This document shows, in pieces, positions 11,162 through 46,679 of a stretch of 46,679 bases of DNA; within the stretch, counting starts at the first letter, position 1; every line of letters begins with the position of its first letter. Location of the stretch: NCBI GenBank assembly GCA_008632985.1, contig QPGO01000159.1, forward strand, positions 124,001 to 170,679, written 5' to 3'. The DNA is from Psammoneis japonica (taxonomy: Eukaryota). Under the pieces are notes generated by a model, which saw nothing but the letters and a program-made list of their open reading frames with translations, did no database searches and was not told the origin of the DNA. The translations under genes and the position numbers were made by a program.

Positions 11162-11215
11162 CTGTAATTACAGTCATTGCCACAGCTTGCTCACTGTGTT
11201 GTCTATTTCATAACA

Positions 11216-16630: not shown

Positions 16631-16759
16631 GCCCACATAAAACAACAACAGTCATTGCCAATGGCACAATACAGTTAACGTGGAGACATTATTGACACTG
16701 TCAATGTCCGTCGAATAATTCCACTTAAGGAATAACTAATGTGCAATTAGGGAGGCCAA

Positions 16760-17126
16760 TGCAGTATGCGCTTGTTACACGCATATTTATAATTATGTGT
16801 TATTTATATGTCAATCGTACCACAGTCGTGGATGCGTATGAAGGACAGAACGATCACACAGAGTTGATCGGATGTCAAAAATTGCAAATACGAACGATTG
16901 ACGATGTTGACATCTTACGTGTCAATAGCAATCATATCCGGACAATCTGTTGTCATGATTATATTCTCCGAAAGGCCTTTTGTCTGTAGAAGCAGTACAG
17001 AAGCTTTAGACCATTGAGAACTTGTTCAGAGAAACCAAAAATCACAGAGTAAAATTTAATCTCACAATTTCCACTTTTCGTACTTTATTCTACTTTCGTT
17101 TATACTTGTTCTTCGAGCATAGTGCA
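16760..17126 (+). repeat. 3' LTR of Gypsy A2 copy 3
   Basis: Reverse complement of the 4675-5047 LTR; TGCA termini. Confidence 0.92.
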
Positions 17127-19256: not shown

Positions 19257-21333
19257 ATGGTTCTCACCAGGCAACAACAAATCGATGGCCACGAGCACAT
19301 CCTAGGCACTGTCCTGAATCAAGCCACAGACAGTCCATTGCGCTCCGCCCTCAACATTGACGGAACCGATTCGCATCAGGACCTTTTCACTTTTACTCCG
19401 ATGCAATTGGATGCCCTTGTGTACAACAACAGCACCAATCAATTGCCTTTGCCACGTGGTTACAAAGCACAGATAGCTGCGCTGATTAGCCTGTACACTG
19501 TAAAAGCACGCGGCAGCGCGGATGTTAGCAACGACCCTCAATTGTTCACACACGAGGAGTTCACCAACTGTTGTCTTAGTCCTGAGTGTGTAGTGTCCCT
19601 CTCCATGGGTACAGCACCATCTGCTCCCACTCATGGCTCGTTGCCACCCAAACCATGTGATCCCATGTGTGACTTTAAATGAGGCATCAAGCGTGACCCA
19701 CTTACCTTCGTGCTTCTCAAGTCTGACAAACAGTGGCACACGTGACACACCTCCATCATTGCACAGGCCCGCTCCCAGGACATCAACCGCATTCTGGATC
19801 CAACGTACAAGCCCTCTACAGCTGAGGACAAGGCCCTGTTTGATGAGCAACAGAAGTACATGTTTGCCGCATTCGAACGTATCTTGCAGAATGACAAAGG
19901 CAAGGCACTTGTTCGTCAACATGTTGGCTCCTCTGATGCTCAAGCAGTGCACCGTGACCTCTCCAAGTATGCCCTTACTTCTGCTTGAGCATCCCTGGAG
20001 TCCTCAACCCTTCTCACGTACCTCACCACTGCTCCCCTCAGTGATGGCACCTGGAAAGGATCCACTCATGCCTTCACACTTCACTGGCAGGACCAGCTCT
20101 GCAAGTGTGAAGCTCTTATCCCAGGTACGGACCATTTCTCTGCTGGCCAGAAACATGTCATGGTTGAGAACGCCATTCATCCTGTTGAAGAACTCTGTTT
20201 GGTAGAGAATCAGGCTGATCAGTTCCGCACGCAGAATGGCAAGGGCCTTTCTTATGAGGAGCACGTTCACCCCCAAGACGGCTCCTTGCACTCCGTGCCG
20301 TGCCATCTACAAACATGACCTGGTCCCCAACGACCCTGACGATGATGTGTCCTTCAACATCAACAGTGATGTTGACGTCATCCAATCTTGTGCTGCGCAG
20401 ACTTGTGGCAACTCCCTCACCAGGGAACAATGGCGTCGCATTCCGCCAGACCATCAGCGGCGCATTTGGGACACCTTGCCCCAGTCCACCAAGGCCATCA
20501 TTCTTGGCTCGCACAACGCCCACACCGGCAACTGCCATGACTTGATGGTGGTCAACCTGCATGACCTTCGTCTTGGCAGTGACGCCAACGTCAACTTGTC
20601 TGCCAATGCCCATGATCTGGCATCGGCCCTCGCACCACCCGACGCTGCCGCCAACACAGCCGATGCTAACCCCATCCTGGCCCATCTCACATGGCGCAAG
20701 CCTTTACCACCCGGTGATTTGCAATGCCTCCTGGCACCTGGACACCCCCCCTCCGCCCCCTCTGGTGAGAAACCTCCCGGATCTCCACCTTCTGTCCACT
20801 CTGACAACAAATCCAACAGATCTGTGTCCTTCCGTACCGCCGACACTGACATTGAGCTTAACGGTCGTAAACACCATCGTGTCAACAACCACAATGTGGT
20901 CTGCTCTGGCTCGACCCACAAGTCAACTCGCAAAGGCACTCTCGTGGATGGTGGTGCAAACGGTGGTGTTGCCGGTGATGATGTTCGTGTCATTGCCTGC
21001 ACTGGTCGCCAGGTTGACGTCGAAGGTGTCGACGATCACCAACTGGTCAACATTCCCATTGTCACTGCCGGTGGTGTCATCCACACACAACGCGGCCCTG
21101 CCATTGCCATCCTTCACCAGTGTGCCTGCAATGGAAAGGGGAAGATGATACACTCTTGCGGCCAGCTCGAGTGGTGCAAACACGACATCAACGATCGGTC
21201 CATCAAGGTCCCCAATGGTCTGCAGCGTGTCACCACCATTGATGGATGTGTCATTCCCATTGACATTAAAGCTGGCCTTCCGTACATCACCACACGCCCG
21301 TACACCGACGCCAAATGGGACAACCTGCCGCAT
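19257..21333 (+). pseudogene. Copia-I gag-protease portion
   Basis: MVLTRQQ..., F(K)*GIKRD, WKGSTH.F..HWQDQL, LVDGGANGGVAGDDVRVI, GLQRVTTIDG.VIPIDIK.GLPYI. Stops and an internal deletion near 20265. Confidence 0.85.
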
Positions 21334-21441
21334 TGCAGCATGCATGCAGACAAAAGGTCATTTTTGTCACGACCTTTGTGACATTTAAACTGTAACACGT
21401 CACCGTGATACATTAACTCTTATAAGTAACTGGATGTTGCA
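21334..21441 (-). repeat. TRIM 3' LTR (108 bp)
   Basis: Direct repeat of 33828-33934, adjacent to the PPT. Confidence 0.92.
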
Positions 21442-21594
21442 CTCCTCCCCATGTATCACGCGACCGATGCGGCTCTTACTAACGTGACACGACACTGAAT
21501 GTGTTTGGTGGAACAGTGTGGGTACGTGCGAAGGAACATACAGAACTTGTGTAGAGTTTTACGCGTTCAACAGTGATCAACGTTGCTGCAGACA

Positions 21595-21648
21595 ACTCCC
21601 ACTCAGGGTTTCGAACCCCTGGCCTTCTGCCTAATAGTTGCCGTACGT
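21595..21648 (-). promoter_or_regulatory. 3' half of a tRNA-like sequence with Pol III B box
   Basis: Minus strand GCAGAAGGCCAGGGGTTCGAAACCCTG. B box GGTTCGAAACC at 21607-21617 sits within a T-arm-like hairpin. Confidence 0.75.
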
Positions 21649-22029
21649 TGCACTATGCTCGAAGAACGAGTGTAAACGAAAGTAGAACGAAGTTCAAAAA
21701 GTGAAAATTATGAGAATTATTTCTACTCGATCATTTTGGGTTTCTCCGAACGGGTTCTCAATAGCCTAAACCTTTTGTACTGCTCCTACAGACAAAAGGC
21801 CTTTCGGAGAATACGATCGTGACAACAGATTGTCCGGATACGATTGATATTGACACATAAGATGTCAACATCATCGTACAGTCGCATTTGCGATTCTCGA
21901 CATCCGATCAACTCTGTGTGATTGATCTGTCCTTCGTACGAACCCACGATTGACGTACGATTGGAATATAAGTTTATTTAATATATTCATATACATATAT
22001 ATATAACGTACATAACAACGCACATTGCA
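21649..22029 (-). repeat. Gypsy A1 3' LTR (381 bp)
   Basis: Direct repeat of 33417-33795. Confidence 0.96.
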
Positions 22030-22055
22030 TTCGCCTCCCTAATTGCACATCAGAG

Positions 22056-25014
22056 TCAGTCGTTAAACGGTATTATCCGACGGATATTGACAGTGTCAAT
22101 GACGTCACCGCGTTTGATCTGTACTGTGCCATTAGTGTTTACCGTTGTTACTACATACGGTCCAACATAGGGCTGTTCTAATTTCTGCGAGTCTTTTTCG
22201 AGTAGTATCTTCTCTCCTACTCTGTTATTTAAAATTTCTTGTTTTCGCTGCTGGATTAATTTCCAGTCTGCAGCATGTTGGACGTTAAATATCATGTCTC
22301 TGTTAAAGACCAATTGTCCAGGTGTAGCTTGCGTAGTATGATACGTAGAACGTACTGCAAATGCTGCTGCTGACAATATTCCAGCGAAGGGATCCTCAGT
22401 ATCCAGCAGTGTGTGTTGCAAATCAAGTGTACGGATCATATTTCCGAGCACTTGATGTACGCGTTCAATAATTGCGTTTGCTTGTGGGTGTGTAGTTATA
22501 GGCTTGACTTTAATGCCATAGTCCTCTTGCACCATGTCTTTGAATTGGTGTCCGATGAACTCACTTCCACGATCATATGTAATTAATGATGGCCAAGGAT
22601 ATCTACTTAACCATGTTCATTCTAGTAATCCAGCTACAGTTATGGATTCCTTATTTGGGATTTCCACAACTTCAAACCATCCGGTTGCTGGATCAATCAT
22701 TGTTAAACATTTCAGGACTAGGGGTTCTTTCTTTCCCTTACGACGTATTTTGTATGGCCCAATAAGGTCCACACATAGTCGTTCCCATGGCACTGATTCT
22801 GCGCACTTAGGAGGTAAATGTCCATATTTCCTGTGTTTCTTTTTGAATTTCTGGCACGTCTCACATCTCGACACGTATTTTCGTATGTCTTCACGTAAGG
22901 TGGACCACCATAAGTGTTGTGAGATTGTCTCTTCTGTTCGATTTATGCCAGGGTGAAGAAGGTACGTATGACACCAATCGATCACTGCCTTTTGTAACGT
23001 CCTTGGAATGACGATTTTATCCTTATGATGTGTGTTTTCTCACAGTGAGTCGGCTGATCGCATCTGCGACAATATTTGCCTTGCCCTCAAGGTATGTTAT
23101 TTTGGGACTGTATTCTTCTATTATTAGATGCCAACGCATGACTCTGTCCAAGGTGAAATTTTTATGTGTGAGATTTTTGTGATCCGTATGTATATTTATC
23201 TGTTGGCCAAACAGCACATTTCGGAACTCCTTTAAGGTCTCCACTATGGACAACAGTTCTTTTTCTGTTGTAGTATAACACGTCTGCGCTCCATTCAGCT
23301 TACGGCTGTAGAAGGCAATTGGGCGGTTTTTCTGCGTAATAACCGCCCCCAATTGAGAATTACTCGCATCAGCATATATCTCAAAGGGTATGTTGAAATT
23401 CGGATAGGACAATAATATATCTTTGGAGATTATGCGCTTCATATTTTCGAAGGCTTTTTGTTCTGTTTCGGTCCATTGCCACTTTACTTGGGTTGAAGTG
23501 AGTTTGGCTAAAGGAGCTAGAACATGAGATCGTCGAGGCCACATGTCTCAATAGTAGTTGATCAGACCGATAAAGCAGAGCAATTCCTTACGAGTCTTAG
23601 GAGTTGCGATCGCGTGAATCGCTTCTACTTTTTTTGGAATCGGACTGATACCGTTACGGGTGATGTGGAAGCCTAGATAGTCTACTTCGGGTTTAGCGAA
23701 AAAGGACTTTTCGGCGTTGACCTTCAATCCGGCTTGTTCTAGGCATAAAAACACCGTCTCAAGCTTCTTGAGGTGGTCTTGAAAATCACCTTTCGTAAGG
23801 CACAACACATCGTCAACATAAGTTCTGACGAACTCTAGACCTGCCATGAGCTCACTCATGTGCTCTTGGAAAATGTCTGGAGCTCCACAGATTCCCATAG
23901 GGAGTCTACAGCACTCACATTTGCCCCAAGGCATAACAATCGTGCACAAACGACGTGCATGCGGCGTCAGCTCGATATGATAGTATCCCATATTCAAATC
24001 TAGGGATGTTGCGTACATGAAACCTTCAAGCTTCTGTAGCATATCCTGAACATTGGGTGGAGGAAGCGGAGTGCGTATTAACCTCTTATTTAGCTCACGA
24101 AAGTCAGATAGGAACCGAACTCGACCATTTTTCTTGGGTTGAATAAAGGTTGGAGCAGCCCATTCAGAACAATTTATTTTTCTTAAGACCTTTAACTTGC
24201 ATAGTCTTTCAACCTCCTTACGAGCAGTCGCCTCCAAGGCTTGTGGTACGGGAAATGGTTTGGCATGATACGGACTCACGCCCGATTTCAACTTTAAATC
24301 CACCGGTTTCCCGGTCCACTTGCCTAGAGAACCATCGAAAAGGTATTCAAATCTTTTTAAGAGGAAGTTTAGTTGTTTCTGCTCTTCAGGAGTTAGATGA
24401 GTAGCTGCTGCTGTCACATTATTGAGGTTTGCGGCGTGAAAGTCTGAGTCAAGGATCCGATTGACCCTGTCATTAAGACTAATCACTGCATGAGATTCCT
24501 CAATATGATCGGCAATCAACTTAAAAACATCGGCATCGAAGAGTGTATCAACATTCTTCATAGGAGTAGTTGCATCTTCCCATTTGATCTCTTCATTCGA
24601 GAAGTCTAACATTATCCCAAGACTCGACATTAAGTCGCGTCCCATGATCATATCATAAGGACTCGAAGAAGAAGAGGAATTATCAACATATGCCATTGTT
24701 TCGATCATCTTATGTTTATCAAATTCGGGTAAGGAGAATTGGGTTTTACATTGACTATCAGTCGTAAAGAGCCCTCCTTTGGTTTCCCAGAGTTTGGTGG
24801 CGGATACTTTGGTTCTGAGTTTCCGCATGAATTTGCGCAAAATTATGGTTGACGATGTTCCGCTATCGAGGAGAACGCGTAGTGGCTTATTTTTCGCTTT
24901 ACCTAAGGAGGTATTCATATAAGCGATGACTGCTGGACTAGCATGAGTTATTTTGGCCCTTTTTCCGGACTTCCTAATATCCAGTAAAGCATAAGACTCC
25001 TCTTGCGGTGCAAG
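22056..25014 (-). pseudogene. pol: Gypsy A1 pol (PR-RT-RNaseH-INT)
   Basis: [43 protein letters not shown]...CETC, CVDLIGP, YDRGSEF, NAIIER, GPY. Two TGA stops (e.g. 23548, CGA in A3) and a ~200-bp deletion near 23035 relative to A3. Confidence 0.95.
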
Positions 25015-25926
25015 TCATTCCTCGGAATCGCTGCGTGTCAATTTTTCAAACTGATAATTCTCCTCGTCAAGGGTGTCAGAGTCACAGTCTTTGCTCTTGC
25101 GCTTCTCATTGTTGTTCGAAGAACTCGCTTTGAGTATTTTTTGAACTGCTTGGACCGCCATAGCATTCAACTCTTCTTTGCGAGCGGCATTATCTTTATC
25201 GCAACGAGACCACGTGCGATTGCCATTTGAACGGCGCCATTTTGGATCGGGTTCATAGTTCCCATGGCGTTCTTTCGCAAGTCTTTTAATCGACCAGCAC
25301 TTGTCTGTGTTATGAGTGGACTTTTCGCATGAAATGCACCACTTATCGGACTGAGATTGTTCGGCACCATGTTGGTGACCATTTTTGGAACCACGTTTGG
25401 AACCATTCTTGGCTTTCGATCCAGCACTGTTGCTGGGATCAGCCTTGGCATGAATGCCGTCAAATATGTCCTCCGCGACCTCTAGGTGCTCCAAAAACTC
25501 AACCAACTCATCATAGGTATGTTTCAAAATTTCGAAACCCTGGACGGTCGACTGACGCTGCCACTTTCGAGGTGCAAGGTTGAAGAGGATGTCCTTGAGC
25601 TCGTCCTCCTCAATCTTCTGATCCTTTCCAAAGGGAGGATAGAACTTGAGATCTTCGTTGACTTCCTGGACCCAGGCAGCAATCTCGAGAACTTTCATCG
25701 ACTCGGGCTTCTTGAGATCGCGACGCAAATAGCGTTTCTGAACCGAAAGTGCGTTCTTGGGAAACACATTCTTCGTGAGATGCTGCAGGCATTTCTCGAA
25801 GCTTCCTTCCGTAGATTTGTCTTCAATGTTCGTCGCCGCATTCTCAAAAGCACGTAGAGCGTCTCCTTGCAGCAACATGCGCATGAGACGGAACTTATCG
25901 ACTTGCTTGCTGACATTCTGGCCCAC

Positions 25927-26096
25927 TGTCTTGTGAAGATATTGTGAGCTTTAGAGGCTTACTACTTCTACGGTCTATGATCTATCCACGTCAGTCACTT
26001 CAGAGGTATCTTCGACATCATCCTACTGAGTCAGCACGAGCTATTCTCTACGAGGTACAGTCTGTCCGTCTGTACGTCGTACGGCTGACCGTGACA
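25927..26096 (-). repeat. Copia-II 3' LTR
   Basis: Direct repeat of 32963-33132. Confidence 0.96.
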
Positions 26097-26321
26097 CTCC
26101 CTCGTGTCGACGAGGGCTCTGTTAAGTAATGTAAGAGAAGCTAAGCCGATGAAGCAATATCTTTACTAAGCCTCTAGAGCATCCCTAGAAAGTGTCTAGG
26201 GTGTGTCTAGGGTTTGTCTCTCCCTCGTGCTTCGAGGAGAAGCGAAATAATGGTGCCATTTGCACAAGTCAAAAATGCTGTTTTTGTCGTATTCTGCAGC
26301 CGCGTTGAACTGCTTACAGGG

Positions 26322-29300
26322 TTACCAACCCATTATCATGCACCTTAAACCTTCGAACTTGGTTCGTCCAAGAGGTTTAGTGAGCAAATCTGCCCAATTG
26401 TAGTTGGTGTCAACTTTTACTACCTTCACAGAACCACGTTTTATGTGGAAACGAAAATGCATCCATTTGATGCTAATGTGCTTGGTTCTAGCTCTGTATT
26501 GCTCGTCAGATGTGGCTAGGACAATGCAGCCGGCATTGTCTTCATGCACGGTGGACGGGGAAAGCTTGTGTGGTGACACACGAGTTTCCAGAGAACCTGA
26601 TTCAATGTGTGAATCTGCTAGTTCAAAATCCATGGTTTTGGACAATTCTTCTAGTATAGTTCTCATAGGTAACAGCTCGCGTAAGCACTGTGATAGTGCA
26701 ATAAGTTCAGCCTCAGTTGAGGAGAGAGCTATTGATGATGTATCCCGATCGGGAGAGATGCGATTCGTGGAGATGGGCAAAATTTCTGTGCCACATTCCC
26801 GCGAAGTCACTATCAACATGTGCATCCACGGAGAATTTCCCTTTTGGCCGGAGCTTAATTCCGTCTGTTGAAGTTGCCAACAGGTAACGTCCAATGTATT
26901 TAACGGCGCGTTCGTGTAATGCCTTTGGGCAATTCGAAAATCTTGCGCACATATGTACTGCCATTGCAATATCTGGGCGAGTCATTTGAGCTAAGAAACT
27001 CATCTTTCCGATGACTGATCGGTACTACAAATTGCAAAACAATTGCGCGATACACGTGCCCGAAGGTCGAATACTGTATCGTTGCCCGAAGCAACATTCT
27101 TCCTTCGCGCAGATGTCCATTCTACATAGTATATGGTATTGAAAATCTCATTGTAGTCGCATGAGTCGTTGCAGTAATTTCATCAATGACCTCTGTGGTA
27201 CTGTGCTACGTGATCTACACAAATCGGACATTCTCGAATGCTGGTATATTTTCTACGGTCTCTACGTGCGCGAAGCTCGAATTTCGCGCCCGAAGCAACA
27301 ATCACCCTTCGGGCACGTGTATCGCGCAATTGTTCAGCAATTCGTAGTAGTTCCACGTTTCTTGACGCTCCTGACCGTTCGAATCAGGATGCAACATTTG
27401 TGCTGCTGGGGTAGCCTTTGTATGGGGCTTATTCTGTAATGGTTCATTGTTGGTTGACCGCAGGCCAAGGTCTATCAATATGGAATCAATAAGGCCAGTC
27501 TAGGTCATTGATATCTCGCCGTTTGCGGTTTGAGTGATATCAACACCTAAGAAAGCGGATACGTCGCCTTCGTCGGTAAGTTGGAACTCGTCTTGTTTGA
27601 GCTCCTGAATGAGCGTTGTGATAATATCATTTGTTGGGGCGAATACGAGGCAATCATCTGTGTATAAGCAGATGAGACAATCATTTCTGATGAATAGACA
27701 TGGGTCTATTTTTGATTTCTTGAATCCTCGGCGTTCTAGGCCTTTGGATAGTTTCTGAAACCAGTTTCGCGCTGCAGTTTTCGTGCCATATAAGTTCTTT
27801 TTGAGCTTGCATACCATATCTGGTATGATATTCCCATTTTCGTCTTTGACCTCCCAGCCTTCTGGGAGTCTCATGTAAACTGGTTCTTCCAGTTCTGCCT
27901 GTGTAAATGCTTGCACATAGTCCACTTGTCTGCTTTTCAGACCAGTAATTGCCGCTAGACACAGTATGAGTCTTACTGTACTCCACGCGACGACGGGGGC
28001 GAATGTGTCCCAATAATCAATACCGTGTTGTTGTTTTGATCCGTCGACGCATATTCTTGCTTTGTATTTTGATAGCTCACCATTTGGTTTTCTTTTTCTT
28101 TTGTAGGACCATATCACGTTCAGTAGGCGGTGGTCTTTTGGAACTTCGGAACGTGGTATATATTCCCATACGTCCATATCAACAAGACCCTGTATTTCAG
28201 GTACTTGTGCTTTTTCGAATTCGGCGCGGTCTGGCGCTTTCTTCATCTGACCTTGGGTCAGGTTATCTGTATTTCCGAGCGCCGCTGCTTCAAATGCTAG
28301 TGGGCTGGATTCGTTCCAAATTCCTTCGTCAAGGAGTATATCATTATCTACAGAACCCATGAGTGCCATCAGGTGGGCTAGTTCTTCATATAGTTCTGCC
28401 GCTACTTCCTGATGGTACAGAGGTATAGTTGTATATGTGGTTGCGTCAGGTAAGTCTGTCGGGTTCGAGTTGTTTTGTACGGTTGTACATGTTGCCTCGT
28501 CGTCTAATCCTTTTCGACGTTTGTATTCTTGAAATTGATGCCGAGCGTGGTCAGCTTCCACATTGAGGCTATTGAGGGCTTCTTGTGTTATCATAGAAGT
28601 TGTAGCATCCTCTGATCCTGCTACAATTGGGCCGGGGGTTTTTGTGTTATCAATGAGTGATGGTGTCGCATTATCGACCGCTGGCGGGCGGTGTGATAAT
28701 GAGCCGGTCCCCTCTGCATTCTCCGATGTAGAACCTGCCGCCACAGGTAGCACAGCCTCGGAGGCAGGGGCTTGTGCTGATTCTGCTGGTGTTGTCGCAT
28801 TTGCTAGCGCAGCTGCTGCGTGGGTCGGTGTCGTGTCCGAGGCACCAGCAGCTGGCAGAATCTCTGCTGATATATTACCAGTATCTGGTTTTTCTTCGCC
28901 GTTGCGGGTACGTTTGCTCCCTCGTGATTTGTGATTCTTTTTCTGCGCCTGTTTGTACGCTTGAGGGTCGATGCCGTGTTCACGGAGCAAGTCGTCCTTA
29001 GTCCAGATATTCTTTTCAAAATAGTATCGATTATGATCGAAGTACTCATCGTGGTGAGTCCAAGTATTACTATAGTCATTGAATAGTTTTTCAAGAGCTG
29101 CCTCTAGTGCGTCAGTGGACGTGTTTCCGGGCGCTACTGTTGTAAAGTTTTCGTCAAAAGTGACGTGAAATTGTGGTGAGACGTGTTTGGTTATGGGGTC
29201 CCATACCAAGTAGACATTGCTGGCATGGTCCAGCGAATGTCCCACGTACACTCCTTGTCGTGACCGTTCGGCCCATCTTCCGATGTGAGTCCCGTCTTGG

Positions 29301-31030
29301 ACACTTTTGTCAGCGATATAGACGGGACATCCTAGACGGGACATCCCACACGCGAAAATCATCCATTTGGAAGGGCGGTTTCTCGTCGGTGAATAGTTCC
29401 CAGGGGTTTTTCTGTTTGCCTTTTCTGATGCACACATTATGAAAGTTGACAGCTTGTCTAATGGCGTATGGCCATAATTCGGTAGTTACTACATCAGACC
29501 AGAGGGACTGAGCGTGTAACAGGTACGTGCGCGCCATCGAGGTGACAACGCCTATGTGCCGTTCGGAGATGCCGTTTTGCCAGTGTGCTCCTACTCCACA
29601 ATAGGAGTTCGGTTGTTTGTTTTCAACGCAGTTTCTATGAACTCTGCAGCGGCGAATATGCCGTTATCGGCATGAATGTGCTCGATTTTGATGTCACATT
29701 TAGCTGCGAATCTCTCGAGCTTGGTTTTGCCGTTCAAAGTCTCTTTTCCTCCAGTAGACTCTTGCATGTGTGGATAGATAAATCTAGAAAAATGATCAAT
29801 CCATAGGGTACAGTGTTTGTACCTGCGAGTGGTTGGTTTGCCACGAGTGGTAGGAAGTAGACCTGGATGGCTCGCGTCGAGTTGGTCCGCCGACACACCT
29901 CGACCTGGAGCATCGTCGTGGCGTTCATCAATTCGATGACCACGTTGCTCAGCTTTGCGCTTTGCTTTAGCATATGCACAAGCTTTGCAGACCGGGGCTT
30001 CGCATTTTTCAAAGCGTTTCGGCACCATGCCGATTTTGGCCCATTCTCGGATTTGTTCGAATCCAATGTGGCCCATGCGATGATGTAGTTTTAACATATC
30101 GCGTTGAATGGGAAGTAGATTGTCTTCTATACCTCCCTCGTGAACTGGTAAGGCTTGTTGAGGCTGGGTAGGCCGGGCCTTTTTGCCGTTCTTATTTTTG
30201 GTTTCATTTTGCTTGTTAGCTTGATTCGGTCTGACCTTTGTGTCGGCCGCCGCCTTTTGCTTTCGTGTTGTGACAGCAAAAGCCGGATACGAAGCCGAAT
30301 ATGCTTTAATATTGGTACGTGATGGTAAAGTGCCATCAGCTCTTACATCAGAGCAAAATGCTTGGCAGTTACCGAAGCCTGGTGCAGTGGTAAGAATCGG
30401 TAGATTTGATTCATGATGACATCGTACTGTCTTGCGATGCTGCCCATAAATCATTGTCATAGAACTGCCACGTATAAAGAACCCATCAGCATCCTGATTG
30501 GGACTTGTGGCTGCCACTTGCTGTGGGCAAAGTAGTCTGACCGGGCAGGCATGGGGACGTATAACACGTTTTCTATATCGATGGTGAAGTTGACACCGGC
30601 GTCGTCCATGAAGGAGCATCTCACCGTGCCAACGCCTTCTATGGCGAGGCCTGAAGCGATACCCTTCAAGTTCAAGTTCTGAACTGGTCTTATATACCCT
30701 ATAAAATCATTCTCATTGTTTGTGATGGTGATAGATGCACCGGAATCGATCACCAAGTGAATTTCATCCGATGTCAGGGTAGGTACCTCGTCTGTGAGGT
30801 ATGCAGCATGTTCTGCTAAAGTGTTTAGTAACTCCTTGTTTTCTTCAGGAGTTCTAGAGTCAATAGTTTCGTATACTTTGACTAGTTGTGGCACATCACG
30901 TTTATCAATGAATGTAGACGTGGAGCGGGGTTTCGCTTGCACGGGGCTACCACGGATGAAATCGTCCGCGGTTCTCGAGAGCTATCTCAAATGCATAAGC
31001 ATTATCAATAATCTCCCCTACTAAACCATG
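26322..31030 (-). pseudogene. pol: Copia-II pol, frameshifted and interrupted by MITE-2
   Basis: VIDSGAS; HHRMGH...CKAC, WIDHFS, ADNG, QNGISER; KYKARICVDG, DYVQAF, LYGTK, LYTDD; VDSDFAG, SSTEAE, EDNAG, WADLLTKPL. Start approximate. Confidence 0.93.
27025..27347. mobile_element. MITE-2 (323 bp, TA TSD)
   Basis: ~42-bp TIRs CTAC(A/G)AATTGC..AACAATTGCGCGATACACGTGCCCGAAGG. TA at 27023-24 and 27348-49. Removal restores the Copia motif TWNYRSVIGKMSFL. Confidence 0.94.
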
Positions 31031-31150
31031 CCGTTGCTGGTGTAGTTTTAGCACAGATGGCGCTAGTTTCATACTTTGCTTTTAGTTTGACCGTTCCAGG
31101 AAAGCACTTGATTAAAACCGGATCTTAAGTATGTGGTGAATTAGGAGCAT

Positions 31151-32930
31151 CTAATTACCGTCTCCCCTCTGTTGCTCAAGAGCAGCAACAGATTTGGAGA
31201 AAGAAAAATTGGCAGTGAGTTTCTGCAACTTATCAATATCAGCCTGAATCTTAGACTGAGCCTTTTGGCGCTTGTGGTCGTAGGCGCTCCTTTTCTGTGC
31301 GCCGCCGCCCTGGTTGGATGTGCGCTTACCGCTCACTGTTGCTGTTTGCAGCGATGTACTCATCATGAGTGTCAGTACTGTGGCGTGTAGAATACATCTT
31401 ACAAGTGTCACACCAATGCCAGGTCTTGTCACCCCATTGTTTTTCCTGAGACTTGTTCTCGGGTTCGAGATACAAGAATGGCGGGGATCCACGACGAGGT
31501 ACACGAGGGCGATCACGCCCATGATGTCCACCACGACCACCGCGACCTGGATTGCTGCGCCTGTTATAACGGCCGTGACGTTCGAATCGTGTCTGCTGGT
31601 GCAGGGTGCTCTGTAAGGCGGTCGCGACCTTGGTCATTTGCTGCGCGAATCCGACTGTCTCTTTCTGACCCGTGATTAGGGCCATGAGTTGAGTGTCGTT
31701 GTCTGAGGGCTTATCCCAGATCTGCTGGGCCACATAAGCGTTCTTGAGGCTGATCGCCTTGTTAAACAGGGTCTCGATTGTCCACGTGACCTGTGTCTTA
31801 CGCATCCATTCTGTCTCATTCTTGGCCATCTCGTCCGCGAAGGGTTTGCAAGGGGCAGTCTTGAATTCTTCAAATGCCTTTTCTACGAGGGTATACTCGA
31901 GCGTACTGTCGCACTGAGTATGCAGGCGTAAGCACTGGCGGAACTTGCTCATGTACTTATCGACATTGCTGTCGCAGTCATTGACCAGAGAGATCTTCAA
32001 CATCTGGGACTGGATGTTGTTGATGTACATCTTAGGCGATGGAAAGAGCTTCTGGTAAGCCAAGAAGAAGTACGTGGAGCCGTCGCGATGGCATGCTTTG
32101 TTCATGTCTGGGGCAATATCCTGACGTAGCTCTTTGTCGAATGACGCGACAAGCAGTTGCTTTAACGCACGTTGAGCGAAGTGCTCGGATGTCTGGTCAT
32201 TGCAGAGCTTACGGACGTTGTCTGGTTCTTCAAGTACCCAGCACTCTAGGGCAAAGGACTCGAAGATCACAAGGGACAGTTGGGGAAAATCTTTAGTTAA
32301 AGACTTGTTAGTGTCACCCACTAGTTTGATTTTGTCCCATGCTGGAGATGTCTCAAGACGTTCCTTGAGACAAAACAAAAAGTCAAAGAATGACTCTGGG
32401 TCTTTAGTGAGTTTGTCCTCTAGCAGTTCAGCTAGCGTCTGGACACGCTTGTCAGCGTACGCACCGGCAGCCTGTTCATTTATCTTCGCGGCAAGGCAGT
32501 CGCGCGCACGCTTAGATAGGTGCTTCCTGGTACGAGTTTTGCGTGGAGTTCCCATGTCGGATGTTTTGGATGAGACACTTTCATCATCAGAAATGTCCAT
32601 TTTGGACACGTCTTTGTCTGACTCGATAGAGTCGTCGACGTCATCAGTTTTACACGCATCAACGGCACGTTCGGTATCCAGGTTTGGTGGATTGACGTCA
32701 TCACGCGACTTCGTCGTCGTGTCGTCGGCTGTTTTGCCAATTGCCTTTTCGGTTTTCCCACCGCGTTTGCGGGGTATGCGCTCTTTGCTTGTCGACTCCT
32801 TGCCACCAGTTGGCGAGGGCGTCGCGACATTGCGCTTCTTCTTCGGTTCAGAAGAGTTCTTGTCCTTTTTGGGCGTGTCAGCCTTGTTGGACTTGGATGG
32901 GGCCATGGTGAGCAGTGAGTGTTGTTGCAA
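31151..32930 (-). CDS. gag: Copia-II gag (534-aa ORF; tail probably continues by a frameshift to 31151)
   Basis: First ORF after the PBS. Basic/acidic N-terminus, helical core, KTWHWCDTC...H...H knuckle. Confidence 0.8.
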
Positions 32931-32962
32931 AAATTGCTGAGGTAACGAAGGGCTTCACAACC

Positions 32963-33132
32963 TGTCTTGTGAAGATATTGTGAGCTTTAGAGGCTTACTA
33001 CTTCTACGGTCTATGATCTATCCACGTCAGTCACTTCAGAGGTATCTTCGACATCATCCTACTGAGTCAGCACGAGCTATTCTCTACGAGGTACAGTCTG
33101 TCCGTCTGTACGTCGTATGGCTGACCCTGACA
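32963..33132 (-). repeat. Copia-II 5' LTR
   Basis: Direct repeat of 25927-26096, adjacent to the PBS. Confidence 0.96.
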
Positions 33133-33416
33133 CCCACTAGAAGTTGATCGTAGCTCTTGAGGAACTCGATGTATTTGGGGACACCCTGTTTCTTGTAGTG
33201 CTCGACATTGATGGTGTAGGTACGACTATCCTTCTTCTCGGGATGAAAACATTGCTCCATCTTGAGATGCTGACTCGGTTTGAGGCTCTTCGGCTCGGAA
33301 TTCGATTCCAACGGTTGCGGAACGATTCTCTCCTGCCGTAACGAAGTTTTGGCATTGGTTACATGAGGTGAAAGCTTCATCTTGAACTTGTTACCTTCTG
33401 TGGTGTGTATACACAA

Positions 33417-33795
33417 TGCACTATGCTCGAAGAACAAGTGTAAACGAAAGTAGAACAAAGTTCAAAAAGTGAAAATTATGAGAATTATTTCTACGCAATC
33501 ATTTTGGGTTTCTCCGAACGGGTTCTCAATAGCCTAAACCTTTTGCACTGCTCCTACAGACAAAAGGCCTTTCCGAGAATACGATCGTGACAACAGATTG
33601 TCCGGATACGATTGACATTGACACATAAGATGTCAACATCATCGTACAGTCGCATTTGCGATTCTCGACATCCGATCAACTCTGTGTGATTGATCTGTCC
33701 TTCGTACGAACCCACGATTGACGTACGATTGGAATATAAGTTTATTTAATATATAGATATACATATATATAACGTACATAACAACGCATATTGCA
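33417..33795 (-). repeat. Gypsy A1 5' LTR
   Basis: Direct repeat of 21649-22029, followed by the palindrome at 33404-33415. Confidence 0.96.
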
Positions 33796-33799
33796 ACGT

Positions 33800-33826
33800 A
33801 TTGAACCACTCCGCTATGAATTCATA
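33800..33826 (-). promoter_or_regulatory. 5' half of a tRNA-like sequence with Pol III A box
   Basis: TAGCGGAGTGG at 33816-33806 fits TRGCNNARYGG. It lies 37 nt upstream of the B box once Gypsy A1 is removed. Confidence 0.72.
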
Positions 33827-33827
33827 A

Positions 33828-33934
33828 TGCAGCATGCATGCAGACAAAAGGACATTTTGTCACGACCTTTGTGACATTTAAACTGTAACACGTCGCCGTG
33901 ACACATTAACTCTTGTGAGTAACTGGACATTGCA
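33828..33934 (-). repeat. TRIM 5' LTR (107 bp)
   Basis: Direct repeat of 21334-21441. Confidence 0.92.
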
Positions 33935-33938
33935 GCAT

Positions 33939-35846
33939 GTCGTTCTCACTGGTGATGACACATGGGATCCATCTGTCCTTGACCACCAGTTCACCGACGA
34001 TGAAAAGTGGTATGATGCCATGTCTGTCCTCCAAGACGACCCGACTACCAACCTCTTTGATGAGTTCGGCAACTATTGCCACTGCCATGTCATCAAAAAA
34101 GCCATGCTTACAGACTCCGTCCTTCATGATCACCTGCTCCCGACGTCTGATTTCTTCTACGAATGCCATGACCACGAAATCAATCCAAAGGCTCCCAACT
34201 TTGAGTCTCTCTCCACCCTTGTTTTGGCTTTCTCCCAAAGGACACTGTTCACCACACTTTTGATTGCATGACGCAGTGCGCCCGCATGCCAGCCAGCACG
34301 CACCTGAAAAAGGCATGCAATTTGCTCAACCCGGCTCTCAATGTCCACCAACGTAAAGAACCTGTTGCTGCTGACACGGTGCACTCCGACACCCCTGCCA
34401 TTGACTCCAGTTGCACCAGCGCCCAGCTCTTTGTCGGCACAGAATCTCTCGTCACTGACGTGTATGGCACCAAAACTGACAAAGAATTTGTCAACACCCT
34501 CGAAGACAACATTCGTAATCGTGGTGCCCGGTCCAAGCTCATCAGCGACTGTGCTCAAGTTGAGATCAGCAACAAGGTTCTTGGCATCCTTTGTGCCCTC
34601 TTCATCTCTAGTTGGCAAAGCGAGCCTGACCAACAGCATCAGAGTTTTGCTGAACGCCGCCACCAAACTGTGAAGACCATGGCCAACACCATCATGGATC
34701 ACTTCAGGTCCCTGGCTTACACCTGGCAACTCGCCCTGATGTGCGTGTGCTTCATGCTCAACCACACGGCGTCCGTCAAGCTCCACTGGCATACCCCCAC
34801 TGAGGTGCTGTCCGGCTCTACTCCCGACATCAGGCCGCTCCTCCGCTTTCAATGTAGGGGAACCCGTGTGCTGTCACCTGGATGATTCCAACTGGCTGTC
34901 CAAATCCTGTGAATTATGTGGTCACCTCATTGGCATTGCCGAACACGTGGGTCACCAAATGACATTCAAGATTCTTTCTGATGACACTCAGAAGATTCTC
35001 TGCTGTTCCAATGTGCATTTCACTCATGATCCGTCTGCTCCAAACCTGCGTCTTGATCCTCCTGACAAGCAATCTGCTGAACCTGTCATTAAATGCCACC
35101 ACAACTCCGAGGATTTGCCAGATTCACCAGATGGGGAGGCGATCAGGATGCCCAAAATGCCGGTCTTTGACCCCAAGGACATCATCGGACGCACCTTCCT
35201 CATGAAGCCACAAGAGGATGGACAACGCCACAGAGCCCGCATCATCAAAGCCGTTGAGGACCATGACTGGAAAATTGGAGACAATCTCCCAAACTAGTCA
35301 AGTTCATTTGCTCTGTCAACAATGATGAATACGAGGAAGTCCTAGCATGCAAAGACACAATGCACCACATTGAGCAAGAAGACGAGGACACCACCCTCTG
35401 GAAGTTCCGACGCATCGCATCGCATGAAGGACCATTGTGACCCCATGATCCCTCTTGGAAAGGCTCAAGCTACAATGTCATGCTTGAATGGGAGAATGGG
35501 GAGATCACGTCCGAACCCCTTGCCATCATTGCCAAGGATGATCCCGTCACCTGTGTCATCTACGCACGTGAGCACGGCCTCCTTGAAACCAAAGAATGGA
35601 GACGTTTTTGCAAGATAGCCCTGCTTCAGAAGAAGCTATTCAGCATGGCCAACCAAGCCAAGTTACGCTCCTTTCACACTGCGCCACGACACAAGCACGG
35701 GTGTGAAGTGCCACGGGACTGCAAGCATGCCCTGGCCCTTGATGAGTGCAGCAACGGCAACCGCAAGTGGGGAGATGCAACAGACCTCGAGATGACTCAG
35801 CTTGATGAGTACGAGGTCTTCCACGACTGCAGACACCACAAGGATT
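33939..35846 (+). pseudogene. pol: Copia-I pol continuation (integrase, chromo-like segment, start of RT)
   Basis: PALNV.QRKEPVAADTV, EFVNTLEDNI..RGA..KLISD, MLNHTA, GIAEHVGH.MTFKIL, YNVMLEWENGEITSEPL, W.DA.DLEM.QLDEYEVF. Confidence 0.88.
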
Positions 35847-36430: not shown

Positions 36431-37752
36431 CAGAACAAAACCAAAATTCTATGTTTAAAGTGCTGCTGCGCTTCTGCCCTGCAACTCCGGCAACAAGCTA
36501 ACCCACACCCCCAGCACACCAACAGTGCGGCAGGAATGTATTGCGATTAGCCAAGATGGGCATCACCAACAAATGATGATGCCCACCGGGAACAGTTGGG
36601 AGTGGTGTTGTAGACAGCAACAGCAAATTGATTTAGCACCTTCAAAGCACTAGAAACCACAGCAATAGAACAGCTCTTTGCTTCTGACTGGATCTGATCA
36701 TTCCACTGAAGCAAGCCATGTTGGAACATTCCAAAGTGAGAAGGGATCTGAAACAGAGCAAACACCGTGTGTTTCACAAACAGGGACCAAAACATCACCA
36801 ACCACCGAGTTGGTCTCAAAATCAAACTTCTGGCAGCAGCAACAACAAAAAGGAGTTTCATCACATAGAGCAAAGAACTTAAAAAGGCATTGAGGAAAGG
36901 GGGGGGTCGTTGGAGCTTGGCAGGCACAGATGGAGAGCCGTCGGATGATAGGAAAATAGGCCATCAGAAAATATTTTCGTGACACGTAGAACTTGCACTG
37001 AGTCTTGCGTAGAAACTTGGCAGGAAGCATCAGCAAACAGGCGAAGAGCCAAATCAAGCCAAGTTGATCTCGAATTCACACTTCTGGAAGCAGCAAAGAT
37101 GGAAGGGTATTTGCTGCATAAAGCAGAGAACTTAAAAGGACAGCAGGCAGAGGGGGGGTCTTTGGAGCTTGGCAGGTATGGATAGAGAGCAGTCGAGAGA
37201 TTGGGAGATCGGCCATTTAAAAATATTTCCTTGACACGTAGAACTTGTATGGAAACTTGTGTAGACTTGTCGGCACGCGGAAGGTTGGCCAACACACACT
37301 GAATTGGTCTCTTCTTCAAACTTCTGAAAGGAACAATGACAGGAAGATGTTCACCACATGACATAGGAAACTTGAATAGACAATAGAGAGAAGGGGGGTC
37401 GTTGATACTTGAGAGGTATGGAGAGAGAGCAATCGGTAGTTTGATGAGTCGTCCGTCTGAAATGACTTGCAGAATGCGTAGAATTTGTACTGAGACCTGT
37501 GTAGAAACTTTGCACGCGAGAACAAAAAATGCCGAGCAGAACGTCGAGCAATTAAGCCAAGAGAGCTGGATGCAATTCGTTTTCCACTGCATGAGATTGT
37601 CAATGATCATAGAATGATGGCATGTCGATAAGGAACACGTCTGAACAGGCAGGTAAGAACCGTCATTACACCATCAGAAAAAGGCAACATCTGTGCCAGA
37701 GCTTACGTAGAAAACATGTAGAGGGTGTGGCCGTGAAACAAAGGCAGAATTG
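36431..37752. other. Unassigned 1.3-kb insert containing three diverged ~240-252-bp tandem units
   Basis: Markers GGGGGTC.TTG.A.CTTG..AGG at ~36901, 37153 and 37394, and CGTAGAA.TTG.A at ~36985, 37237 and 37477. Minus-strand ORF 36879-37610 repeats LPSSxDPP. Confidence 0.6.
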
Positions 37753-40137
37753 TAAGAAAAATAAATTGTTCTGAATGGGCAGCTCCAACCTTTATTCAAC
37801 CAAAGAAAAATGGTCGAGTCTGGTTCTTATCCAACTTTCGTGAGCTGAATAAGAGGATAATACGTACGCCGTTTCCTCTGCCCAATGTTCAGGATATGCT
37901 GCAGAAGCTTGAAGGTTTCATGTATGCAACATCCCTTGATTTGAATATGGGACACTATCACATCGAATTAACGCCGCATGCACGTCGTCCATGCACGATT
38001 GTCATGCCTTGGGGCAAACATGAGTGCTGTAGACTCCCCATGGGAATCTGTGGAGCTCCAGATATTTTCCAAGAGCACATGAGTGAGCTCATGGCAGGTC
38101 TGGAGTTCGTCAGGACTTACATTGACGACATCCTGTGCCTTACAAAAGGTGATTTCCAAGACCACCTCAAGAAGCTTGAGATGGTGTTTTTATGCCTTGA
38201 ACAAGCCGGATTGAAGGTCAATGCCAAAAAGTCTTTTTTTGCTAAACCCGAAGTAGACTATCTGGGCTTTCACATCACCCGTAATGGCATCAGTCCCATT
38301 CCAAAAAAAGTAGAAGCGATTCAAGCGATCGCAATCCCTAAAACTTGTAAAGAATTGTGACGCTTTATCGGTCTGATCAACTGCTGTCGAGACATGTGGC
38401 CTCGACGATCTCATGTTCTAGCTCCTTTAGCCAAACTTACTTTTCAGACCAAGTAAAGTGGCAATGGACCGAAACAGAACAAAAAGCAAGCCTTCAAAAA
38501 TGTGAAGCGCATCATCTCTAAAGATGTGCTGTTGTCATACCCACATTTCAACATGCCCTTTGAGACACATGCTGATGCAAGTAATTCTCAATTGGGGGCG
38601 GTTATCACGCAGAATAACCGGACCAATTGCCCTGCCTTTTACAGCTGTAAGCTGAATGGAGCGCAGACGCATTGTGCTACAATGGAAAAAGAACTATTGT
38701 CCACAGTGGAGACATTAAAAGAGTTCCGAAATATGCTGTTTGGCCAACAGATAAACACACACACGGATCACAAAAATCTCACACATGAACATTTCACAAT
38801 GGACAGAGTCATGCATCGGCGTCTAATGACAGAAGAATGCAGTCCCAAAATGACACATCTTGAGGGCAAGGCGAATGTTGTCGCAGATGCGATTAGCTGA
38901 CTTGCTGTTAAAAAAAGGAACCCATGGAAAACCTCAGCACAGAAGAGTCAGCTGAAAAGGTCCTGCCAAAATCCTACAACAATGTCTTTCCGTTAAATTA
39001 CAAAGTTCTTGACACTGAACAAAATCAGGATAAAGACATTCTCTCCAACTTGTCTAACAAGACATTTCATATGAAGACTTTTCATGGAGGTGAGCGAGAC
39101 CGGTTGCTCACATGTCATAAGGATAAAATCGTCGTTCCAAAGACGTTACAAAAGGAAGTGATAGATTGGTGCCATGCGCACCTTCTTCACCCTGGCATAA
39201 ACCAAACAGAAGAAACAATCTAACAACACTTATGGTGGTCTACCTTACATGAAGACATAAGAAAATACGTGTCGACATGTGAGACATGCCAGAAATTCAA
39301 AAAGAAACACAAGATGTACGGACATTTACCTCCTAAGTGCGCAGAATCTGTGCCACGGGAACAACTGTGTGTGGATCTTGTTGGACCATACAAGATACGT
39401 CGTAAGGGAAAGAAGAAACCCCCAGTCCTGAAGTGTGTTTAACAATGATTGATCCAGCAACCGGATGGTTTGAAGTTGTGGAAATTCCAAATAAGGAATC
39501 CATAACTGCAGCTGGACTATTAGAACGGACATGGTTAAGTAGATGTCCTTGGCCATCGTTGATCACTTATGATCGTGGAAGTGAGTTCATCGGACACCAA
39601 TTTAAAGACATGGTGCAAGATGATTATGGCATTAAAGTCAAGCCTATAACTACACAAAATCCACAAGCAAACGCAATTATTGAATGCGCACATCAAGTGC
39701 TGGGAAACATGATCCACACACTTGACTTGCAACATGCACCTCTGGACACTGAGGATCCTTTCGCTGGAACATTGTCAGCAGCAGCATTTGCAGTACGTTC
39801 AACATATCATGCCACTACGCAAGCTACACCTGGACAATTTGTCTTTAACAGAGACGTGACATTTAACTTCCAACACGTCGCAGACTGGAAATTTATCCAG
39901 CAGCGAAAACAAAAAATTATAAATAGAAATAACCCTCGAGAGAATACTCAACGTACTCCTTACACGTACAAAGTAGGAAAAAAGACACTGCTCGAGAAAG
40001 ACTCGCAGAAACTAGAACAGCCCTATGTTGGACCGTATGTAATAACAACGGTGCACACTAATGGCACAGTACAGATCAAACGCGGTGACGTCCTTGACAC
40101 TGTCAATGTCCATTGAATTATTCCATTTAACGACTGA
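37753..40137 (+). pseudogene. pol: Gypsy A3 pol (RT-RNaseH-INT)
   Basis: SEWAAPTF, YIDD, ADAS, CVDLVGP, YDRGSEF, GPY; stops and frameshifts. Confidence 0.93.
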
Positions 40138-40163
40138 CTCTAATGTGCAATTAGGGAGGCGAA

Positions 40164-40538
40164 TGATGCGTTGTTATGTACATTATATATGCACATATAA
40201 AGACATTAAATAAATTTGTGTTTCAATCGTACGTCAATCGTGGGTTCGTACAAAGGACAGATCAATCACACAGAATTGATCGGATGTCGAAAATGGCAAA
40301 TACGATTGTACGATGATGTTGACATCTTATGTGTCAATGTCAATCGTATCCGGACAATCTGTTGTCACGATCTTATTCTCCGAAAGGCCTCTTGTCTGCA
40401 GGAACAGTGCAAATGCTTTAGGCCATTGAGAACCCGTTCGGAGAAACCCAAAATGATTGAGTAGAAATAATTCTCATAATTTTCACTTTTCATACTTGAT
40501 TCTACTTTCATTTATACTCGTTCTTCGAGCATGGTGCA
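40164..40538 (+). repeat. Gypsy A3 3' LTR
   Basis: Reverse complement of the A1 LTR, with a small deletion at its start. Confidence 0.93.
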
Positions 40539-45915: not shown

Positions 45916-46361
45916 TGGGGATACCAGCCTCGTAGTAGAATCGGAGAGCCTCTTTTGCCCTCGCGATCTCGCGTTTTGTGTGCCCTTTTGAGTTTTCTTT
46001 GGCAGTCGGAATCACTGTCCCAGCAACACTACCTGGCCCGCGCTTCTTGCGCTTCGATTGCTTGGATCCTGTCACATTCATGTTTACATGTTGCTCTGCT
46101 TCTTGGAGCTCCTTCACGTAACCTAGGAATCCATTACTTGGGGATGCCAGCCTCGTAGTAGAATCGGAGAGCCTCTTTTGCCCTCGCGATCTCGCGTTTT
46201 GTATGCCCTTTTGAGTTTTCTTTGGCAGTCGGAATCACTGTCCCAGCAACACTACCTGGCCCGCGCTTCTTGCGCTTCGATTGCTTGGATCCTGTCATGT
46301 TCATGTTTACATGTTGCTCTGCTTCTTGGAGCTCCTTCACGTAACCTGGGAATCCATTACT
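45916..46361. repeat. 223-bp tandem duplication inside Copia-III pol
   Basis: 45916-46138 and 46139-46361 differ at 5 positions. Confidence 0.96.
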
Positions 46362-46679
46362 CGGTGTAAACGCGTATAGGCCAATGCTGTTCGCCTTGAA
46401 CACCGCGACTTGCTTCCCCGACTTCTTATCCAGTAAGCGGAATTCATCGGCTACTCGCGTGTCATAGGTCATGTCGTACTTTTTCTTGACGTCTCGTAAA
46501 CTGAGGATGTTTGCAATTGCATTCTTTGTTCCGAGTTTCATGTCACCCCATCCTGGCATGGTACAGTCTTTATCCAGCGTGTCCACTCCTGTGTTCGTTG
46601 ATAGGTCGATCTTGACCTTTGCTGGTCTGATGTTGTGTACGAGATTCCCACTCGCTGCCATGCTAAGGGTGGATCCATT

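Follow-up and report, generated by a model that had tools for sequence, protein, structure and literature searches.

A high-copy, 450-nucleotide TRIM-like LTR element with a tRNA-like module in its inner domain, interrupted by a Gypsy element in Psammoneis japonica

The DNA analysed here is a stretch of 46,679 nucleotides from Psammoneis japonica (contig QPGO01000159.1), called the window in the following, and its subject is a short element with long terminal repeats (LTRs) which a Gypsy element, named Gypsy A1, has cut in two. A preliminary description made from the sequence had proposed a terminal-repeat retrotransposon in miniature (TRIM) of about 450 bp that carries a tRNA-derived promoter for RNA polymerase III (Pol III). 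Two direct repeats of 108 and 107 nt with TGCA at either end mark its borders, and their pairwise alignment gives 92.6% likeness (100 matches, 6 transitions, 1 transversion and 1 gap column), while no further copy of this repeat is found within the 46,679 bases. Between them lies Gypsy A1 with 12,147 nt and ACGT on both sides. When Gypsy A1 and one ACGT are removed by coordinates, the computed uninterrupted TRIM has 450 nt with an inner domain of 235 nt. GCAT stands on both of its flanks, and the open reading frame (ORF) at 20206-21333 of the host sequence gains 110 codons from position 33939 if the 450-nt unit and one GCAT are taken out, whereas it otherwise meets a stop 15 codons into the LTR. 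Therefore, the whole unit goes back to one integration event, and the proposed element of about 450 bp, split by Gypsy A1, is confirmed by both duplications and the restored frame. As the purine run GGGGAGGAG adjoins the repeat at 21441 on the minus strand, the TRIM is minus-oriented. The distance from the end of the box B hairpin (CTG) to this run, given before as about 150 nt, is 153 nt.

TRIMs have terminal direct repeats of about 100-250 bp with TG...CA ends, a total length below 1000 bp and a non-coding inner domain. The element agrees with this in the length and ends of its repeats, in its size and in its non-coding inside, and it also shows a target-site duplication, a polypurine tract and many copies. 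No reading frame lies within the inner domain in the lists of ORFs of at least 70 or at least 150 amino acids. A tRNA-complementary primer-binding site of the TGG type is missing after the 5' repeat, where a T and a 12-nt palindrome are found instead; we nevertheless class the element as TRIM-like because Gypsy A, its putative partner, equally lacks such a site. Taken as a whole, the evidence supports a real, multi-copy, 450-nt TRIM-like LTR element, whose parts are listed in Table 1.

Table 1. Parts of the TRIM and of the insertion that interrupts it, with window coordinates and, where available, positions in the uninterrupted TRIM (minus strand)
Feature	Window position	Strand	Basis	TRIM position
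Target-site duplication GCAT, 5' LTR side	33935..33938	.	read from sequence	
5' LTR of the TRIM, 107 nt, TGCA...TGCA	33828..33934	-	92.6% to 21334-21441	1-107
Spacer T (33827) and perfect 12-nt palindrome TATGAATTCATA at the primer-binding-site position	33815..33827	-	palindrome scan	T 108, palindrome 109-120
Box A match TAGCGGAGTGG, 2-nt overlap with the palindrome	33806..33816	-	sole window match	119-129
ACGT, target duplication of Gypsy A1	33796..33799; second copy 21645-21648	.	read from sequence	
Gypsy A1, interrupting insertion, outside the TRIM	21649..33795	-	LTRs and domains	
T-arm-like hairpin containing box B GGTTCGAAACC (21607-21617)	21604..21621	-	pattern scan and fold	box B 167-177
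Non-coding body of the inner domain, 153 nt, without sense-strand TTTT	21451..21603	-	sequence map	
Polypurine tract GGGGAGGAG, adjoining the 3' LTR	21442..21450	-	junction comparison	334-342
3' LTR of the TRIM, 108 nt; sense TTTT at 21352-21355, 18 nt before the LTR end	21334..21441	-	repeat alignment	343-450, TTTT 429-432
Target-site duplication GCAT, 3' LTR side	21330..21333	.	read from sequence	

The insertion that interrupts the TRIM is itself interrupted. Gypsy A1 has LTRs at 21649-22029 and 33417-33795 (381 and 379 nt, 96.9% alike), and its domains follow each other on the minus strand as reverse transcriptase, RNase H and integrase zinc domain, an order that identifies it as a Ty3/Gypsy element. 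Nested within it is a Copia element (RVT_2) with LTRs at 25926-26102 and 32962-33138 that are 97.7% alike. Ordered by the identity of their LTR pairs, with 92.6% for the TRIM, 96.9% for Gypsy A1 and 97.7% for Copia, the TRIM is the oldest insertion, followed by Gypsy A1 and then Copia, which fits the nesting. The host of the TRIM is a plus-strand Gypsy element (RVT_1 at 37737-38360, rve at 39406-40116) with LTR-like repeats at 16660-17126 and 40060-40538 on the plus strand that are 79% alike. These repeats end in 19 nt identical to the end of the Gypsy A LTR (GTTCTTCGAGCATAGTGCA) and are not followed by a palindrome; the host appears to be an older relative of Gypsy A. The ORF that received the TRIM has no Pfam match.

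Other copies were found among contigs of the public run X1, aligned to positions 21000-34300 at a likeness of at least 80%. X1 is one of three runs from one sample of one study and the only one in which the stretch is found (0.42 of the words sampled from 20700-22200); the sampled organism may be the window's own source, and the copies count as within-genome evidence and stand for no second organism. The X1 contig depths, which are sums over contigs and no copy numbers, reach 27,428 at 21528, 70,058 at 21569 and 32,673 at 33882, and are uneven along the inner domain (135 at 21469, 337 at 21500 and 1,366 at 21550), whose non-coding body is deepest around 21569. Contigs identical to the window have depths of 27.1 and 33.5, and the summed depth of the TRIM is hundreds to thousands of times higher. 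The TRIM is highly repeated, with hundreds to thousands of copy equivalents, roughly on the thousand-copy scale as judged by contig depth. The inner core (21553-21600) has, with its 70,058 at 21569, twice the LTR depth of 32,673, although each core comes with two LTRs; further cores may occur away from LTRs, for example in a free SINE (short interspersed nuclear element), or the difference could come from unitig fragmentation instead. Exact-pattern scans with three TRIM stretches of 20-23 nt gave no locus in the metagenome, viral and genome contig collections.

At least six contigs of other copies join both halves of the inner domain without Gypsy A1. In X1 the joints run from 21633 to 33805 in one contig and from 21635 to 33802 in three, with 21635 to 33796 also listed, and the letters unlike the window between the joined sides number 13, 10, 8 and 4. 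The X2 contig of 226 nt covers 21437-21641 with 19 differences and 3 gaps and continues with 22 letters that match 33800-33821. The shorter side of these joints measures 22-28 letters and lies below the 31-letter bridging rule of the contig comparison; we still take them as bridging because only 28-32 nt of inner domain precede the LTR there and six contigs agree. Unitigs of LTR elements are expected to break at the LTR. The joined contigs are other copies of the TRIM and not an empty allele of this locus; what they document is the sequence of the TRIM itself. In a comparison of the window with the X1 copies we counted 512 A>G and 504 T>C against 263 G>A and 250 C>T changes and 272 transversions in total. 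The window thus holds A or T against G or C in the other copies twice as often as the reverse, which is the pattern of C-to-T decay, as in methylated repeats, in the copies of this locus.

These contigs also bear on the idea that the window shows a one-off event, either a SINE inserted into this copy alone or a long element's deletion derivative that exists only once, both of which the preliminary description had named as ways in which it could fail. The window indeed contains a single copy. Both are contradicted by the other copies, with the two halves of the head joined in at least six contigs, and by the high summed depth across the TRIM. We consider a one-off event extremely improbable.

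The 5' part of the inner domain, the head, carries the tRNA-like features. The box A consensus TRGCNNAGTGG has one match in the window (0.54 expected; at least one in 46 of 100 shuffles), and so has the box B consensus GGTTCGANNCC (0.23 expected; at least one in 18 of 100 shuffles). Both matches are exact, in line with the proposed fit to the consensus, lie on the minus strand and are 48 nt apart from start to start in the uninterrupted TRIM, compared with a spacing of 44 in tRNA genes. In other copies the spacing is usually about 43 nt, with 8-10 letters instead of 15 between 21635 and 33802. By arithmetic from the two single-box rates, a pair that shares a strand and has the proper order and tRNA-like spacing is expected about 4e-5 times per window. 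In addition, fold prediction places box B in a hairpin CAGGG...CCCTG at the position of the T-arm. The proposed retention of the T-arm holds for this hairpin around box B and not for its canonical form: the loop has 8 nt if the stem is read with 5 bp, and 7 nt if it is read with 4 pairs, of which one is G-T. This copy forms no acceptor, D or anticodon stem, in line with the degenerate acceptor and anticodon arms described before. The palindrome occupies the seven positions before box A, which it overlaps by 2 nt as described, and these positions do not pair with the would-be 3' acceptor strand.

By the cloverleaf criterion the head is neither a tRNA gene nor a tRNA pseudogene. ARAGORN reported no tRNA gene in the window and none on the uninterrupted TRIM at default settings or at -ps80; Rfam gave no hit at the gathering score in the window and none at E values up to 10 on either half of the TRIM. 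No cloverleaf was obtained, the 93-nt head folding at -22.3 kcal/mol compared with -22.3 +/- 3.2 kcal/mol for shuffles (z = 0.01), and the whole inner domain folds no better than shuffles either (z = -0.37). The calls that ARAGORN made at -ps60 on the uninterrupted TRIM (67-147, 153-251 complement and 182-268) were discarded as noise, as none fits the box layout. In the X2 copy a G at 33816 makes the first base of box A a C and not a T, and the exact box A of the window copy is probably in part a product of decay. The silence of the tRNA finder and the covariance models and this decayed first base would agree with a mere chance resemblance to boxes A and B, which we nevertheless regard as very unlikely: in all 46,679 bases either consensus is matched once only, both matches share a strand and follow each other in tRNA order at tRNA spacing, with a hairpin at the T-arm position, and the joint expectation is as low as given above. 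Because the box pair is unlikely by chance and box B lies in this hairpin, we accept a tRNA ancestry, and the head, judged by its sequence, very probably descends from a tRNA or a tRNA-derived SINE. An origin from the primer, with the reverse transcriptase reading into the tRNA, was rejected; it would leave an antisense tRNA with its 3' end at the LTR, whereas the module here is in sense orientation with its 5' side at the LTR. Gypsy A1 inserted between box A and box B of this head, a single event that cannot show a targeting of Pol III sites.

The ends of the TRIM connect it with Gypsy A. In a side-by-side comparison of the junctions the TRIM reads ...GCATGCTGCA-T-TATGAATTCATA-GCGG after its 5' LTR, and Gypsy A1 and the copy with the LTR start at 4675 read ...GCATAGTGCA-T-TGTGTATACACA-CCAC; before the 3' LTR the TRIM has GGGGAGGAG-TGCAAC and Gypsy A1 AGGGAGGCGAA-TGCAAT. 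Common to the TRIM and Gypsy A are the TGCA ends, the T spacer, a 12-nt palindrome, a GGGAGG purine tract and a 4-bp duplication, and the termini, duplication and palindrome that the preliminary description had listed as shared are indeed so. The window contains 15 perfect 12-nt palindromes (3.2e-4 per position), four of which lie 0-1 nt from the inner edge of a 5' LTR, namely 4662-4673 and 33404-33415 in Gypsy A copies, 11162-11173 in another Gypsy element (CTGTAATTACAG) and 33815-33826 in the TRIM. An imperfect palindrome at about 1298-1309 is also found in a TGCA-ended Gypsy setting. The Gypsy elements with a palindrome have TGCA-ended LTRs and no TGG-type tRNA primer site, and two palindrome-bearing families show CCACAG a few bases further on. 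The nested Copia has no palindrome at the inner edge of its 5' LTR.

The part of the TRIM palindrome that the X2 contig covers starts with TGTGAAT; the palindrome of the TRIM family is probably TGTG-AATT-CACA and nearer to the TGTG-TATA-CACA of Gypsy A. As the central four bases vary and self-complementarity is retained, a constraint on pairing, in a hairpin or an RNA-RNA dimer, is suggested and not one on complementarity to a single tRNA. The palindromes at the primer site suggest hairpin- or dimer-based priming in these Gypsy elements, in agreement with the hairpin sites and the self-priming of elements without a tRNA-type site that are described in PMC6934838.

Beyond the shared end signals, the self-comparison of the window revealed no sequence similarity between the TRIM and Gypsy A. 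An 11-nt word, CAGACAAAAGG on the plus strand, which holds TTTT and occurs in the TRIM LTR and in Gypsy A-type LTRs, was not counted (E = 1.9). A search with the Gypsy A reverse transcriptase in viral contigs gave no related locus. Gypsy A-type proteins are likely to mobilise the TRIM and are the best-supported candidates among the elements in the window. The borrowing of the Gypsy A machinery, as proposed before, has the shared end signals in its favour and is a likely partnership among window elements.

TFIIIC binding needs boxes of this quality, and transcripts of tRNA genes start about 11-18 nt before box A. Binding of TFIIIC and some Pol III transcription of the head are plausible, if somewhat short of an even chance. 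The predicted start falls on positions 101-108 of the TRIM and at most at about 112, that is on the last bases of the 5' LTR or on the spacer and palindrome, and the only sense-strand TTTT after the head is that at 429-432, with 18 nt of the 3' LTR still to follow, near the LTR end as noted before. With a start at the boundary between LTR and inner domain, a box-driven RNA would therefore lack R and U5, and the standard first strand transfer would be unable to rebuild the LTRs. Such an RNA would also end at the TTTT, before the few LTR bases found at its start. A role of the head as promoter of the transposition template is accordingly awkward in its mechanism, and we consider it unlikely.

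The opposite case can still be made. The tRNA-derived head could be a working internal Pol III promoter for the RNA that is reverse-transcribed, which would make the element a TRIM of the Pol III type 'TRIMp3' with its promoter in the inner domain. This would require nearly the whole LTR to serve as U3, R to consist of the last few LTR bases and the TTTT to be read through. The exact boxes A and B at 48 nt, or about 43 nt in other copies, the absence of TTTT between head and 3' LTR, the absence of an obvious RNA polymerase II (Pol II) promoter in the LTR, the high abundance and the length of 450 nt, within the range of 311-1263 bp of Pol III-driven TRIMs (PMC10886601), would fit such a promoter. 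It is opposed by the predicted start without R and U5 and the TTTT that ends the RNA before a possible R, by the failure of ARAGORN (default and -ps80) and Rfam (E up to 10) to recognise anything tRNA-like, by a head without cloverleaf that folds like its shuffles and by the C at the beginning of box A in another copy. We regard a working promoter of this kind as unlikely. Less likely still appears its full form, a new Pol III-driven LTR architecture with a type 2 promoter just inside the 5' LTR, a start in the last LTR bases and an LTR that is approximately U3, copied by Gypsy elements whose priming uses a palindromic hairpin or RNA-dimer site and no tRNA; it may then also be the first family resembling TRIMp3 from beyond fungi, animals and plants.

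The module might also act as RNA within a Pol II transcript, as a tRNA mimic that aids packaging into Gypsy A particles or priming near the palindrome. tRNA-like elements near retroviral primer sites are an analogue at the RNA level. The module directly follows the primer-site palindrome with a 2-nt overlap and is retained in the other copies seen, and in some bivalve TRIMs, too, a stretch similar to tRNA comes right after the 5' repeat, along with palindromes and without a canonical primer site (PMC6934838). The head, in contrast, has no significant predicted structure (z = 0.01), its acceptor, D and anticodon stems are unformed in this copy, and Gypsy A has no such module after its palindrome, so its proteins need none. 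A function at the RNA level is in our view distinctly improbable.

The closest described relatives are the Helenus elements, TRIMs with tRNA-derived sequence that were described by Kojima in 2024 and grouped as 'TRIMp3' (PMC10886601). Their tRNA-like piece is non-functional with boxes A and B kept, animal Helenus elements have 4-bp duplications and a proposed dependence on Gypsy, and for Helenus and Ajax an origin by SINE insertion has been proposed (PMC10886601). The TRIM described here shares with Helenus the short non-coding LTR format, the purine tract, the short inner domain and the high copy number, a tRNA-derived piece with boxes A and B and no functional tRNA, the 4-bp duplication, the likely link to Gypsy and a proposed origin by SINE acquisition. 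In Helenus, however, the tRNA-like piece lies in the LTRs and the transcript stays within LTRs with terminal redundancy, as in the known Pol III-type TRIMs in general, whose small-RNA module inside the LTR avoids the loss of R and U5 (PMC10886601). In our case the LTRs contain no box A or box B, the sole window matches being in the inner domain. Moreover, Helenus elements have tRNA-complementary primer sites and not a palindrome. Regarding the conserved boxes that are typical of TRIMp3, they are exact in the window copy, and the flanks of the other copies aligned at 80% or more, one of them with a C at the start of box A. The element thus resembles TRIMp3 but is not Helenus by definition. Helenus is known from fungi, animals and one plant; the words 'diatom' and 'stramenopil' do not occur in the whole text of that paper, and the survey screened LTRs only (PMC10886601, section 3.1).

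Cassandra, a plant TRIM, likewise carries a Pol III promoter module whose origin is a small-RNA gene, but its module is 5S-derived (type 1 promoter) and lies in the LTRs, whereas the one described here is tRNA-derived and lies in the inner domain. Cassandra has been shown to give Pol III transcripts (PMC10886601, section 4.1), the present TRIM being known from its sequence. The preliminary description had called a tRNA-derived internal promoter a different design compared with Cassandra. The tRNA origin itself is no new design, being known since Helenus in 2024 (PMC10886601), and only the place of the module, in the inner domain and not in the LTR, differs; a TRIM with a box A/box B module in its inner domain was not found in the literature searched, which did not include the supplements of PMC10886601.

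With SINE2 elements the TRIM shares a sense tRNA-derived head with boxes A and B, degenerate stems, an unrelated body, a length of a few hundred bases and a high copy number. SINEs, by contrast, are copied by enzymes of long interspersed nuclear elements (LINEs) at the target and have no LTRs, purine tract or fixed 4-bp duplication, and the TRIM, being bounded by LTRs and having these features, does not belong to SINE2. It also differs from SINE2 in that the first seven tRNA positions are palindrome and in the lack of an A-rich or LINE-like tail. Finally, bivalve TRIMs, GalEa Copia elements with their 'conserved hairpin site' and Tf1-type self-priming elements equally have no canonical primer site and a palindrome or hairpin at or near it; in bivalve TRIMs the tRNA similarity extends over a short stretch that was read as a possible primer site (PMC6934838), compared with a sense box A-box B module here.

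In our explanation, to which we assign a probability of roughly 55%, the TRIM is an old copy, now interrupted, from a non-autonomous LTR family of 450 nt and high copy number that was mobilised by Gypsy A and carried a tRNA or SINE module along. Coding for nothing, it would be copied and integrated in trans by Gypsy A-type proteins whose end signals it mimics. Its inner domain would begin with a sense module from a tRNA or a tRNA-derived SINE that kept boxes A and B and the T-arm-like hairpin and lost the acceptor, D and anticodon stems. This module may have been captured when a SINE inserted into the inner domain, or through template switching onto a co-packaged Pol III RNA, and then carried along by the TRIM family. 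It may be transcribed by Pol III, while the RNA that is reverse-transcribed more likely starts inside the 5' LTR. In this estimate we take as observed how the TRIM is built, that it went in by one insertion, that it is repeated, that other copies have the module and that the match to both boxes is not due to chance, and we infer the mobilising partner, the origin of the module and the polymerase that makes the template.

Several points weigh against this explanation. Both boxes are at textbook consensus and all bridging contigs retain both flanks, which selection for a promoter would also fit. A clear Pol II promoter is absent from the 107-nt LTR; the one TATA-like word, TTATAAG, occurs in the 3' copy alone, where two C/T changes set it apart from the 5' copy, and has the look of C-to-T decay. 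The summed depth of the TRIM is several-fold above that of the inner part of Gypsy A (5,578-8,349, bins 22332-25883), and a strong promoter of its own could be the cause of this excess. The argument from R and U5 rests on the standard model of the template, and Gypsy A has a palindrome and no tRNA-type primer site. The mobilising partner, moreover, was judged only among the elements lying in this window.

The remainder of the window is a graveyard of nested repeats. All ORFs with Pfam matches are related to transposons (RVT_1, RVT_2, RNase H, integrase and aspartyl protease), a weak Mutator match being found at 6071-6598, and no host gene was recognised by Pfam among the ORFs of the window. 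Within 206-5051 a 3.36-kb unit of a Gypsy A-like inner fragment and an LTR is present twice in tandem, with 206-1372 and 3564-4736 at 86% and the LTR pieces 1877-2193 and 4735-5051 at 95%; it looks like an array of the type LTR-inner-LTR-inner-LTR that arose by unequal recombination. Further tandem repeats are located at 7936-8990 (units of about 179 nt, T-rich on the plus strand, at least 6 copies, 70-88% alike) and at 45916-46364 (a 223-nt unit present twice, 97-98% alike). A Copia protein in the window has 21 relatives, of which the only close named one comes from the diatom Fragilaria crotonensis (E 1.6e-79, 30% identity), a weak hint at a diatom, and three distant ones come from a plant. 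For Gypsy, at least 120 relatives were listed.

TRIMs with promoters of small-RNA genes, such as Cassandra, Helenus and Ajax, bridge SINEs and LTR elements, and in all described TRIMs of this kind the promoter lies within the LTR, which fits how the ends of LTR elements are rebuilt. Its place in the inner domain of a successful family could mean that a tRNA-derived module can be captured and kept although the copied RNA starts from another promoter, and this would caution against taking every pair of boxes A and B in a TRIM as a promoter. It could also mean that LTR elements replicate from a transcript with almost no terminal redundancy. In annotation, copies of such a TRIM can inflate the counts of tRNA pseudogenes and SINEs. 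Finally, the primer-site palindrome that the TRIM shares with Gypsy elements points to an unstudied mode of priming in the Gypsy group.

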